Part shown: piece after piece, positions 27,860 to 53,676 of the stretch
Layout: each line of letters opens with the position of its first letter
How positions within the stretch are numbered: position 1 is the stretch's first letter
Origin: Escherichia phage ManiMatter_Bas94
Sequence record: PQ850617.1
DNA length: 64,000 bases
Strand: one strand, 5' to 3'
Position numbers and translations under genes: made by a program
The notes under the pieces: model-generated
Database searches by the model: none
What the model was told of the DNA's origin: nothing
What the model saw: the letters and a program-made list of their open reading frames with translations, nothing else

Positions 27860-28051
27860 TTACATTGTATAAATTCGCATGATTGTACCACCATCAGCTT
27901 CAATAGCAGAAACAACTTCATCTCGTTCTTCATCCGTGTACACTAGTACGCTTTTAAACGAGCCAGTCACATCTGTGTACAAAATGTTGTACTTGGGAGG
28001 TGGTTTACGGTAAATACCTTCCATCATTCTTTCTCCTCTCGTTCTTTCCAC
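27860..28051 (-). CDS. Hypothetical protein
   Basis: 63-aa ORF. Confidence 0.35.
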   Translation of the reverse strand: MERTRGERMMEGIYRKPPPKYNILYTDVTGSFKSVLVYTDEERDEVVSAIEADGGTIMRIYTM

Positions 28052-28221
28052 AGTTCAGCAAGCTCTAGGTAGAACTCAGCTTCATCAGGACGTCCTTGTT
28101 CATTACAGATGGCGCTTTGACGATAACACCAATCTGATGGCATCTCTTCCACTTCAATCTCCTTATTATGAACTAATCAATAAGACTAGTTCATTTGTAT
28201 TTCAATCTTTCAGTTCTGAAT

Positions 28222-28715
28222 TTAGTGTGTATGCATCCAGTTTAACCCAATCTGACAATCAGAAGCCAGAGGACACTCCATGTTCAAGTACTCACCAGCC
28301 TTCTTAACACAAAGCTCGGTGTACTCTTTGAGTTTCTGTACATCATTACGGTTCACTGAGAACTGGCCCTCATCGTGCATATCAATTACCTTAGCACAAC
28401 GAACTCCATCTTTCTCAATCCACTTGTTAAGGAACATCATAGCATATTTCATAACAACAGCACCAGCACATTGCAGGAGTGTGTTAAGGGCTTTATGAAC
28501 CATAACCTTACCAGTGGCATCCCGTCTCATTGTAATCTTACGACCATCAACGCCAATCAAATACCCTTGAGCAGCTTTCTCTGTCATACGATCAATGAGG
28601 ATTGCAATACATGGGTTCTCTGCCAAGAAGCGTGCTCGCATCACTGAACCTTCGTCAGCTCCACCACCTACGATTGAACCAAGCTTAGCATCACCAGCAC
28701 CATAGTTAAACGCAT
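28222..28715 (-). CDS. DNA polymerase (family A, T7 gp5-like), exon 2
   Basis: Frame open upstream of track ORF to 28716; encodes ...FNYGAGDAKLGSIVGGG...VHKALNTLLQ...VIDMHDEGQF (motif C HDE) ...GLNWMHTH. Confidence 0.75.
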
Positions 28716-29421
28716 CTCATATATTCGACAAGAGCCGCAACACTCTCGCCCGTTCTCTTATGAACTGCTACATGTCGCCATGTAGGATAGACTATATCAT
28801 CACCCTCTGTCGAGGGGTTGGGCGCTTCCACCGGCATTAGCTTCCGGTGTACTCCTTTCGGATAGTCGTTGCACCTTCAAGTATTCTATAGCTGTTTCTA
28901 ATCGGCTAACATCATCTTTCAATAGCCCTAAAGCTCTGTTGCAGTTGTGACACAACAGACCGCGTATTACTCCGGATTCATGGCAATGATCAACCACAAG
29001 TTTAATTCTGTGATGTGTTGCCATTGCAAACCCTTCGCCCTTACAGATAGCACACTTCCCATCCTGATCAGCGTACATCTTTTCGTAATCGCTGGCTGTG
29101 ATTCCATAAATTCGTTTGAAGTAGGAATTTCTCCAGCCCCTATCTTTGCATTCATCAGAGCAATAATGTTCAGATGGTGCATTTGGTTGAAAATCTTTTG
29201 AGCAATTACGACAAGGTTTTGGATTGAACCGACCTTGAGGGTATTTACTTGCCTCAGCAGTCTGTTCTTCTTTAGTTTTAGTTACAGTTGTATATTCCAT
29301 AAGCACCTCCATGTTGAGTTGCTATAGAATACTTGCTTGGCTCAGGATTGTCTACTAGAGAGTTTCCCTGAGTTCACCCAATTTAATCGACGAGATTACT
29401 CTCGAAGTATCCATTTACGTC
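28716..29421 (-). mobile_element. Group-I-like intron in DNA polymerase motif B, carrying a homing endonuclease ORF
   Basis: 706-nt interruption; upstream exon ends in U, intron ends in G; joining restores TFI-Y-AFNYGAGD in frame. Confidence 0.6.
28800..29312 (-). CDS. HNH homing endonuclease, endonuclease VII-like
   Basis: KCAICKGEGF...VVDHCHESGVIRGLLCHNCNRALG signature. Confidence 0.75.
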   Translation of the reverse strand: MEVLMEYTTVTKTKEEQTAEASKYPQGRFNPKPCRNCSKDFQPNAPSEHYCSDECKDRGWRNSYFKRIYGITASDYEKMYADQDGKCAICKGEGFAMATHHRIKLVVDHCHESGVIRGLLCHNCNRALGLLKDDVSRLETAIEYLKVQRLSERSTPEANAGGSAQPLDRG

Positions 29422-30772
29422 AGATAAACGTTTTAGCGTTGTCACGAGTAGGAAGACCAGCAAGTTTCTGGTTGTGGGAGTGGATATCACCTTCAAGAAG
29501 GATATCACGATACATAATAGCAGAAGCTAAACCACGTTCTGCCAGAGCTTTCTTAGCTGGATTATTCTCTTCGATTGCTTCAGCAAGCATATCCCTACAT
29601 TCTTTAATGAGGTAGTGAGCGAGCATACGAAGTTCAAGTCCAGAACCATCATACCCTAAGAATACTTCTTTACCAGCGGGTATGTAATATTTGTAAGCAC
29701 CTACAGGCTTATCTTTCTTCCCCGGCTTACCTTTCTCGTAAATTACGTTAGTACCTTTTCGTATATAACAACCATCAGGAACAACGTTAGTAATAACGAA
29801 AGGACGAGAGTGATCACTGTCTGAATTATAGTCAGACTCAAACAAACTGCGACACTCATGACCAAACAAACCACGGGAGGGAATATTAACCACGATACGA
29901 TGTTTGAATCGAAAAGTTGGCGTAGCGCAGCTGTTAGCTTCTGCCGAAAGTTTACCATCTTCGCGTTCCTTTGCTATGAGTCCACTGATAAGACCTAGCC
30001 TGTGAGCCGCTACAACGCGCCTCTTAAGCAAACTTCCAACACTCCCTAGCTCGCCCCCTAACCCTTCTTCAAGAGTCTCCTCGAGGTTTGTAGGAGCTGT
30101 AGGCCACTTGTTTGAGGTAGCTAGTGCTATCTTAATCTCATCAAACGTGATAGGTCTACGTCGGTTAGGGTTTAAACCTAAACCAAACACATAAGCCTTC
30201 ATATAGTTCTTAGTCTTAAACCTAAAATGCTTCTCTAAGAACCTCCTAATATCTGCGTCAACCATCTCGGCTGTCTGCTTCTGTTTAGCATTACCTCGAA
30301 TCCAAGCTGAATACCACGCTTGGTATGTTCCATACTTTCGTATATCTTTCTTGATTTCAAAAGTATTCCAAGGTTTCTTTGATACGTTAAACTCTGGAGG
30401 AAGAAAACCCTCATCCATAAGGGCTTCTTTAACTCGTGCATCTTTCGATGGGTCAAAGTCCACGTATTCAACACAGGTGAATGCTCCACCAATGTCTTCT
30501 CTCTTAAGGCCAACTCTATCACAATAGGCTTGAGGCCACTTCTGTAAAGCTCCAGACTTCTTAAATGGCTTCATATAAGTAGAGCCATCTAATCTCATCT
30601 TAGGTAAGAGAGGGATCAGTTCTTTGTCGATATTAACAATAATCTCTTTAAGGAGGTGAACATACCACCGAGCATTTCTTCGGTTGAAACTCACTCCGTG
30701 CTTCGCTTGCTTAGAGATTATATCAGCGACAGTCATCTCTGTCAAAAATGGGAGAGCGTCCGGGTTGCTCAC
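29422..30772 (-). CDS. DNA polymerase (family A, T7 gp5-like), exon 1
   Basis: LGYDGSGLELRMLAH (motif A) and PTRDNAKTFI (start of motif B); no 3'-5' exo domain in this ORF. Confidence 0.8.
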
Positions 30773-30788
30773 TTTATACTCCTTTAAA

Positions 30789-31211
30789 TTATTGGTAAAG
30801 TAAATCTGTAAATGCTTGGTTGTCTTCTACTACATCTAGCAAGGTTGCTTCGTTACTATAAGACCTAACCGTCCCGTTGACAACTGTCCGAGTAGGAGAG
30901 GGAGGTGGTGTATGGTTAGCTCTAGCTTCGCGAGGTTGCTCTCGTACTAAATGAGCCATAGCCATTTGGTTAGCGACTTCTTCTCTTTCTCGAATAGCTC
31001 TCTGAATATAAGCTAGCTTCATGCCCCAAGCTTCTTCAAATTCTTGAGGATGTTTGTCACTGATAACCACATATTGACGTTCAGGGATACCAGAGCGAAT
31101 CTCTGATAAGAGTTCACAGAACAAATCCAGTTCGTGTTCAGTGAGATTCATTTCGATATCATCCCACTTGAGAACTAGGAAACGGTTTTGATATCTAGTC
31201 GGTAATGGCAT
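30789..31211 (-). CDS. Hypothetical protein
   Basis: 140-aa ORF. Confidence 0.4.
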   Translation of the reverse strand: MPLPTRYQNRFLVLKWDDIEMNLTEHELDLFCELLSEIRSGIPERQYVVISDKHPQEFEEAWGMKLAYIQRAIREREEVANQMAMAHLVREQPREARANHTPPPSPTRTVVNGTVRSYSNEATLLDVVEDNQAFTDLLYQ

Positions 31212-53597: not shown

Positions 53598-53676
53598 TGA
53601 GGATGACAGGATTTGAACCTGCATACTCCAATTACTTCTTTAACGACCGCTTAGAAGGCGGGGAAGATACATCCTC
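53598..53676 (-). other. tRNA-like element (perfect acceptor stem and T-arm, non-canonical body)
   Basis: Minus strand GAGGATG...GCAGG-TTCAAAT-CCTGT-CATCCTC-A; no 5-bp anticodon stem found by hand. Confidence 0.25.

Follow-up and report, generated by a model that had tools for sequence, protein, structure and literature searches.

The 64,000-nucleotide (nt) stretch of Escherichia phage ManiMatter_Bas94 (PQ850617.1) analysed here, referred to in its full length as the window, carries on its minus strand a DNA polymerase gene in two exons, a group I intron between them and an endonuclease gene inside the intron; all features of the element described below lie on that strand. Exon 1 (30772..29422) begins with a GTG start codon at 30772 and ends ...AAA ACG TTT ATC T, which reads ...K T F I followed by the first base of a Tyr codon. 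Exon 2 (28715..28222) continues AT GCG TTT AAC TAT GGT ... and closes with a stop codon at 28224..28222. The 706-nt insert between them (29421..28716) starts GACGUAAAU..., finishes ...AUAUGAG with its terminal G at 28716, and is identified as a group I intron (subgroup IA2) on the evidence of its exact fit as an insertion relative to the uninterrupted gene of a sibling phage, Bas92, of its match to Rfam family RF00028 and of covariation. The endonuclease gene within it (29300..28800; 166 amino acids (aa) plus stop codon) is recognized from Pfam family PF02945, from its relatives in PDB and from the ratio of nonsynonymous to synonymous substitution (dN/dS). Taken together, these features very probably represent a mobile IA2 group I intron that, in a Kuravirus-like coliphage, splits the gene for a family A polymerase in a tyrosine codon of motif B.

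The original prediction, made from the letters of the sequence, held that the polymerase frame stops after ...PTRDNAKTFI and resumes 706 nt further on, with the intervening DNA at 28716-29421. Both the sequence and the alignment with Bas92 bear this out, and the finding is confirmed as correct to the base. The stop is a TGA formed across the junction (T 29422, G 29421, A 29420), and the frame restarts at 28715 as (T)AT GCG TTT AAC TAT GGT, or YAFNYG. In a global alignment with the Bas92 polymerase gene, the extra DNA is exactly the 706 nt of 29421..28716, with G at both ends; this boundary cannot slide, because the first G of the intron differs from the first A of exon 2 and the last T of exon 1 differs from the last G of the intron. 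Joining U29422 to 28715, with the intron ending at G28716, restores an in-frame motif as had been proposed, in an open reading frame (ORF) of 1845 nt and 614 aa without a frame shift. The predicted ligated junction is ...ACGUUUAUCU↓AUGCGUUUAAC... (in another rendering, ACGTTTATCT↓ATGCGTTTAAC; here and below the arrow marks the insertion point).

Ligation of the exons in silico restores TRDNAKTFIYAFNYGAGD, and the gp5 sequences of T7 in PDB read TRDNAKTFIYGFLYGAGD at the aligned place, so that the T7 motif cited in the original prediction proves to be the right one. The spliced protein matches Pfam DNA_pol_A (E 5e-23), and its alignment with T7 gp5 extends over motifs B and C. The split codon is the equivalent of T7 Y526 in the O-helix of motif B, counted along the 704-residue gp5 chain, and by the standard motif B alignment it corresponds to F762 of E. 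coli Pol I. The O-helix tyrosine of T7 polymerase governs dideoxynucleotide discrimination.

A megablast search with 28000..31000 returned one full-length match, Escherichia phage AidaStucki_Bas93 (PQ850593.1; 99.6% identity, 13 mismatches in 3001 nt), and about 110 other kuravirus-like (Gordonclarkvirinae) phages aligned in the flanks only. The host belongs to the Kuravirus-like (phiEco32-like) podophages and not to the T7-like phages. The window is a close variant of the deposited Bas93 and is not identical to it, three of the 13 differences (29026, 28848, 28809) lying inside the intron. Bas93 is a viable isolate, which, the polymerase being essential, lends indirect support to splicing; its sibling from the same river, JacquesWildberger_Bas92, is 99.5% identical and has an uninterrupted polymerase gene of 1845 nt. 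In the GenBank record of Bas93, the polymerase coding sequence (CDS) is a two-part join over 2551 nt (1845 + 706) and encloses a CDS under the name 'endonuclease VII'; the word 'intron' is absent from the BASEL paper that describes Bas93. The element is thus already annotated in a database record, and a published description of it was not found in the literature searched.

The insert had been called group-I-like in the original prediction, and the covariance-model check named there is positive: RF00028 matches 28768..29436 (minus strand) over the full model (1-253; E 1.8e-9, 43.3 bits), with P6 holding an insertion of 434 nt. RNAalifold and a pair count on related introns back the helices from P1 through P9.2, the P3-P7 pseudoknot among them, with many compensatory changes. 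The 5′ strand of P1 (29426..29422) consists of the last five exon bases, UAUCU, with U29422 as the 5′ splice-site U, and the 3′ strand (29412..29408) is the internal guide sequence GGAUA, in which G29412 faces the splice-site U as a U•G pair. The same UAUCU/GGAUA pairing is found in Aeromonas phage MQM1 and in the metagenomic copies L026 and L030. Eleven introns were compared, spread over six sites of which five lie in family A polymerase genes and the sixth in a T4-like family B gene: P1 measures 4-9 bp and matches the exon of each intron, a G stands opposite the terminal exon U in all 11, and the guides covary with the exon sequence. The terminal G, here G28716, is likewise present in all related introns whose boundaries can be set.

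Downstream of P1 lies a P2 hairpin, CGAGA-GUAA-UCUCG (29404..29391), which has compensatory variants in the copies at the same site (CGAGA/UCUCG, CGGGA/UCCCG and GGAGA/UCUCC, with GGGGA/UCCCC in MQM1). The 5′ strand of P3, UUGGGUG (29381..29375), pairs with CGCCCAA (28824..28818); 97% of its cells are paired and five of its seven pairs are altered on both sides. The P4-P5 domain (29372..29341; P4 CUCAGG/CCUGAG, P5 UCU/AGA) rests on RNAalifold and on pair counts, with pairing of 98% in P4 and 93% in P5, against 70% in P8, the loop of which is poorly aligned. Duplex folding identifies P6a, in which the 5′ strand CAAGUAUUCUAUAGC (29335..29321) is the perfect reverse complement of the 3′ strand GCUAUAGAAUACUUG (28892..28878), as a 15-bp helix that closes a 428-nt loop, in which most of the endonuclease ORF lies.

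The catalytic core (28867..28790), also supported by the Rfam alignment, comprises P7, P7.1, an AGUA linker, P7.2, the 3′ strand of P3, P8 (CCCUC/GAGGG) and J8/7. P7 pairs GACUAU (28867..28862) with AUAGUC (28795..28790); it fits the family consensus GACUAU/AUAGUC and is 98% paired and invariant across 10 relatives, so that covariation is uninformative for it. P7.1 is CC-GAAA-GG, and P7.2 is CACCGG/CCGGUG, with compensatory changes in all six pairs and 97% of cells paired. Subgroup IA2 is marked by two additional helices, P7.1 and P7.2, that follow P7, precede the 3′ strand of P3 and are connected by a G-U-A linker (criterion quoted in PMC3428280), and the intron is assigned to it because its P7.1 and P7.2 are joined by AGUA. 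The 3′ domain (28785..28716) contains P9 (CUACAUG-GCGA-CAUGUAG; 100% paired, five of seven pairs covarying), P9.1 (GUUC/GAAC), P9.2 (GGCGAGAG/CUCUUGUC) and the tail GAAUAUAUGAG, whose last base is the terminal G28716.

The covariation figures come from a MAFFT alignment of ten related introns with ORF loops removed, from which the motif C intron of phage PE006 (see below) was left out. RNAalifold alone recovered P3, P4, P5, P7.1, P7.2, P9 and P9.2, with compensatory changes in 32 of 42 pairs. In the full hand model (P1, P2, P3, P4, P5, P6, P6a, P7 as a pseudoknot, P7.1, P7.2, P8, P9, P9.1 and P9.2), 86.2% of cells are in standard pairs, compared with 70.5% in column shuffles, none of 500 of which reached the observed value. 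When the 3′ partners were slid by 1-3 columns, pairing fell to 34-46%, and the number of pairs changed on both sides, 50 in the full model, was 13-21. The hand register of P9.2 is one column off in most of the aligned sequences (58.6% paired), and the RNAalifold register is better.

These results bear on how the polymerase could be made from an interrupted gene. Gene callers split it into two ORFs, and two polymerase CDSs are likewise annotated on metagenome contigs and in several GenBank records of related phages, as would suit two assembling subunits accompanied by a free-standing endonuclease gene and a decayed ribozyme remnant; a GTG/ATG start at 28644, inside exon 2, could be read in the same sense. 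Separate translation of the halves, which the original prediction had itself set against its own proposal, is however contradicted at several points. The break lies within an O-helix codon, and exon 1 would finish at ...KTFI; the first start in exon 2 lies past motif B, with loss of YAFNYGAGDAKLGSIVGGGADEGS including the second motif B tyrosine; an in-frame TGA stands one codon ahead of exon 2 (...NI, stop, D↓AFNYG); the polymerase of Bas92 is one continuous ORF; and the ribozyme core is undecayed, P7 being invariant and the helices keeping their pairing via compensatory changes. A split polymerase gene is therefore very improbable. Removal at the protein level, by an intein or in a split-intein 'fractured gene', has a metagenomic parallel in fractured polymerase genes with split inteins around endonuclease genes (PMC2677866), but exon 1 ends at the junction-formed TGA with no room for an N-intein, the TGA one codon upstream closes the exon-2 frame and the insert is not in frame with the host protein, its sole Pfam domain is Endonuclease_7, and its RNA matches the group I model; this is the least credible of the alternatives. 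The stop codons, together with the intact ribozyme, are the grounds on which the intein, the fractured gene and the two-subunit polymerase were all rejected.

The longest reading of the ORF inside the intron (29312..28800) has 170 aa, which is the length given in the original prediction of an HNH/endonuclease VII-like protein. Its start is probably the ATG at 29300, which gives 166 aa, since the ATG at 29312 overlaps the Shine-Dalgarno sequence GGAGGUG (29310..29304); the 166-aa length is also that of the GenBank record and of all metagenomic homologues. The proposed family stands, in that the product matches Pfam Endonuclease_7 (PF02945; E 1.2e-23, 83.2 bits against a cut-off of 23.6), and the nearest solved structures in PDB are Hpy99I and T4 endonuclease VII. 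In the 166-aa numbering, its signature residues, which comprise the catalytic Asp/His/His/Arg/Asn set and the zinc cysteines, are C83-AI-C86, D104-H105-C-H107, R113 and C117-HN-C120-N121. Residues of the pattern CX2-4C...DHxH...R...CX2CN define the DHHRN family of homing endonucleases, which includes proteins encoded by introns of Berlin, YpP-G and LUZ24 (PMC6083498), and the sequence points to a homing nuclease of the Endonuclease VII type (DHHRN) whose N-terminal region is rich in Cys and putatively binds DNA. Relatives of the protein number 824 at E <= 1e-10, and its dN/dS between lineages, 0.06-0.18, indicates that it is kept by purifying selection.

The ORF begins in the P6a loop, and its final 23 codons (28868..28800) traverse P7, P7.1, P7.2, the P3 3′ strand and P8 to a UGA in J8/7. 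The codon in J6/7 that ends the ORF in Berlin-type introns is UAA; it is CAA here, and the ORF is so extended by the 23 codons. The cassette near the ribosome-binding site, TAGCAACTCAA.AGGAGGTGCTTATG, is common to the window, Klebsiella phage RCIP0053 and the copies L026 and L027. The intron of phage Vi06 has an unrelated ORF that runs through the same ribozyme core in an identical frame, and the resulting 35% protein match (GATTISKESTSEANADGSAQPLETE vs VQRLSERSTPEANAGGSAQPLDRG) is spurious.

The distribution of the element speaks to its mobility. Metagenome contigs encode proteins with 99%, 83% and 72% aa identity to the endonuclease, each again between two polymerase pieces. The copies L026, L027-29 and L030-32 occupy the identical site, with junctions TTTATCT↓...G↓ATGC and a conserved guide GGAUA, and ribozyme and endonuclease occur together at this site in at least four exon backgrounds; in MQM1, the same TTTATCT↓ATGC site is occupied without the endonuclease ORF. 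A scan of IMG/VR viral contigs for the lineage-specific P1/P2 signature GGATACTTNNNGAGTAATC gave 13 loci, all of them chance matches in unrelated coding sequence with no ribozyme core downstream. The window and Bas92 differ by 18 substitutions in 5295 nt, among them a synonymous T at 28714, 2 nt into exon 2, where the codon is TAT here and TAC in the intron-less Bas92. No other substitution against Bas92 occurs in the 178 nt that precede the insertion site or in the 439 nt that follow it, and the chance that some substitution would lie no more than 2 nt from the site is roughly 1.4% (18 × 4 / 5295). The copies that bear the intron at this site all read ATGC, with T at the position of 28714. 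The change fits either co-conversion over a very short tract or a substitution that protects the intron-bearing allele.

In the proposed mechanism, the ribozyme would bind free guanosine after transcription, and the guanosine would attack after U29422; the freed 3′-OH of exon 1 would then attack after G28716, with ligation of the exons into an mRNA for the 614-aa polymerase and release of the 706-nt intron. The endonuclease would be made from its own ribosome-binding site within the P6a loop. In a mixed infection, it would cut polymerase alleles that lack the intron, close to the motif B site, and repair by recombination from intron-bearing genomes would fill the empty site with a copy of the intron and of a few bases beside it (homing).

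It is conceivable, though unlikely, that the ribozyme splices while the element is no longer mobile, the intron being a resident passenger in Bas93. In variants of this explanation, the endonuclease would be inactive, or re-purposed (e.g., for resolving junctions or for competition with related phages), or its target would be mismatched to kuravirus polymerase genes. The element is indeed present in just 1 of about 111 kuravirus-like records, and Pfam places the ORF in the T4 recombination endonuclease VII family, a family of resolvases; yet intron-encoded proteins with the Endonuclease VII motif (Berlin, YpP-G, LUZ24) fall in an endonuclease clade apart from the resolvases (PMC6083498). The intact ORF, its low dN/dS and its movement with the ribozyme into several exon backgrounds also argue against immobility, and its presence and absence between 99.5% identical phages of the same river would fit recent movement.

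Several points weigh against reading the element as a mobile, self-splicing intron. Its RF00028 score of 43.3 bits is below the gathering score of 50, a threshold of curation and not a biological criterion. The shortfall is attributed to the 434-nt ORF insertion in P6: ORF-less relatives pass the cut-off (MQM1, at the identical site, 75.1 bits; LAMP 100.8; PSD2002 75.9; G2285 83.6; HP1 75.5), and ORF-bearing copies of the same lineage score 43-46 bits. P1 has just 5 bp, and for P10, the pairing of the guide with exon 2, only weak candidates of 2-4 bp were found (AU/AU beside P1, or GCGU/ACGU). A single record in a collection of 50,697 phage records carries the full element, the spread of which is seen mainly in short metagenome contigs, and the difference between the siblings may reflect precise loss in Bas92 rather than gain in Bas93. 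Splicing, protein-free self-splicing, the activity of the endonuclease and its cut site are inferred from the sequence.

Within the range of known introns, the evidence supports an element typical of its kind, namely a mobile group I intron of subgroup IA2 that carries a homing endonuclease and interrupts the polymerase gene of a phage. The closest precedents are the Berlin-type introns (PMC6083498; also in Klebsiella phage RCIP0053), which are located 5 nt upstream of the site in the window. They share with it the motif B O-helix of a family A polymerase, an IA2 ribozyme with P7.1 and P7.2, and an ORF in P6a, and the Berlin endonuclease has 60% protein identity and about 68% DNA identity to that of the window. 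They differ in their site (ACGUU↓U, in the F524 codon), in a 7-bp guide (GGCGUCU), in the lack of P2 and in a ribozyme core that is 64% identical. The first polymerase intron of Aeromonas phage vB_AsaP_MQM1 (OQ628262) has the same TTTATCT↓ATGCG site, the guide GGAUA, the P2 hairpin and 73% core identity, but is 289 nt long, with only a short ORF in P6a and no endonuclease gene; the polymerase of MQM1 is about 40-54% identical to that of the window in aligned segments.

Introns with H-N-H ORFs in polymerase genes of T7-like phages, cited as precedent in the original prediction, do exist there, although at a different site, and the present host is Kuravirus-like. The PhiI and W31 introns (endonuclease I-TslI) belong to T7-like coliphages, likewise podophages of enterobacteria, and are self-splicing IA2 introns of a family A polymerase gene with an H-N-H-superfamily ORF in P6a, but they interrupt Pol I position 881 in motif C (H↓DE), unlike the motif B site of the window (PMC3428280). 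The motif C site of the window is uninterrupted, being continuous across 28375/28376. Introns of the same subgroup interrupt the finger subdomain of the family A polymerases of SPO1, SP82, Bastille, Pf-WMP3 (I-HmuI, I-HmuII, I-BasI, I-PfoP3I) and phiL7; these introns carry H-N-H nicking endonucleases and illustrate how highly conserved catalytic motifs are generally targeted (PMC3428280); their sites correspond to Pol I 674 and 676, not 762, and their endonucleases are classical H-N-H rather than Endonuclease VII/DHHRN proteins. PMC3428280 lists three sites for introns in family A polymerase genes, namely Pol I 674 (SPO1, SP82, Bastille, Pf-WMP3), 676 (phiL7) and 881 (PhiI, W31), and Pol I 762 is not among them.

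The ribozyme family extends to family B polymerases. The gene 43 introns of the T4-like phages PSD2002 and G2285 have about 75% core identity to the window and Rfam scores of 76-84 bits, and they too interrupt a nucleotide-binding motif (...SLYGAL↓GN...); they differ from the element in the window in the polymerase family, in a guide of 8 bp (GGCGCACU) and in lacking both an ORF and P2. In GenBank, the interrupted genes of PSD2002 (L011 1480-1710) and G2285 (L012 1480-1712) appear as two CDSs or with the remark 'unable to determine intron/exon boundaries'.

Motif B itself is interrupted at several points, which can be counted from the A of ACG (T523) in ACGTTTATCTACGCGTTTAACTATGG: after nt 5, in the F524 codon, in Berlin, RCIP0053 and Vi06; after nt 10, in the Y526 codon, in Bas93, MQM1 and the metagenome copies; after nt 16, in the F528 codon, in phage IME184; and after nt 22, in the Y530 codon, in phage LAMP. 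The guide sequence of each motif B intron fits its own site. In Klebsiella phage IME184 (L006 2295-2965; also in Kpp-61), a Berlin-type ribozyme and endonuclease lie 11 nt downstream of the Berlin site and 6 nt downstream of the site in the window, at GCGT↓TTTTA, with the guide GCGCAUGUA instead of GGCGUCU and a 9-bp P1; nine intron-less relatives back the junction (499-nt span). Judged by these sequences, the IME184 case looks like local retargeting of an intron. Escherichia phage LAMP (MG673519; L003 3092-3395) has a 304-nt ORF-less group I intron at TTTAACT↓ATGGGG, 12 nt downstream of the Bas93 site, and several synonymous exon changes relative to Bas92 flank it.

The ribozyme core of the window is 73-76% identical to those of Vi06, PSD2002, HP1 and MQM1 and 64% identical to that of Berlin; the endonuclease is 60% identical to its counterparts in Berlin and IME184 and unrelated to that of Vi06. 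This pattern suggests that the endonuclease cassette was swapped between ribozymes and that the element is a mosaic, a suggestion weakened by the modest size of the identity differences and by their basis in about 200 aligned core columns. Motif B would then be a dense intron hotspot, with at least four insertion points within 17 nt used by related IA2 ribozymes whose guides are retargeted and whose modules are reshuffled, and the Bas93 element would be a chimera of an MQM1/Vi06-type ribozyme and a Berlin/IME184-type endonuclease; the arguments for and against this broader proposal are about evenly balanced. If it is true, Bas92 and Bas93, which infect E. coli K-12, would offer a ready natural pair, in a tractable host, in which homing, co-conversion and the shifting of intron sites could be measured.

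What is mildly new is the insertion site, which is without mention in the literature examined, its place as one of four insertion points inside 17 nt, and the apparent ribozyme/endonuclease mosaic; the accepted view of how such elements work is unchanged. An O-helix tyrosine codon appears as an intron target, and the few introns known from phages of enterobacteria gain an example from the Kuravirus group. For annotation, recognition of the intron restores one essential 614-aa enzyme, and the BASEL collection provides in Bas93 and Bas92 a natural intron-plus/intron-minus pair that grows on E. coli K-12.

Other polymerase genes contain further group I matches. Phage PE006 (L004 3421-4027) has a 607-nt intron in motif C, at VIDMH↓DEGQ (Pol I 881), with a different H-N-H-type ORF and an 8-bp P1, and its polymerase pieces are separate CDSs in GenBank. 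Many other kuraviruses span about 550-600 nt more than Bas92 and may have a motif C intron there too. Additional matches are found in RCIP0053 (L007 2349-2601 and 3918-4564), which may have three introns, and in MQM1 (L008 3112-3743), which has two. Pseudoalteromonas phage HP1 has two group I matches (L010 1446-1716 and 2220-2501) in unnamed genes, and its record carries no intron annotation. Elsewhere in the window, 53598..53676 (minus strand) gives an Rfam tRNA match of 33.4 bits (cut-off 29), for which ARAGORN makes no call; visual inspection shows an acceptor stem and a T arm, a CUUCUAA anticodon loop (UCU, Arg) and a long variable region, together with a poor D arm, and the match may be a divergent phage tRNA-Arg-like gene.

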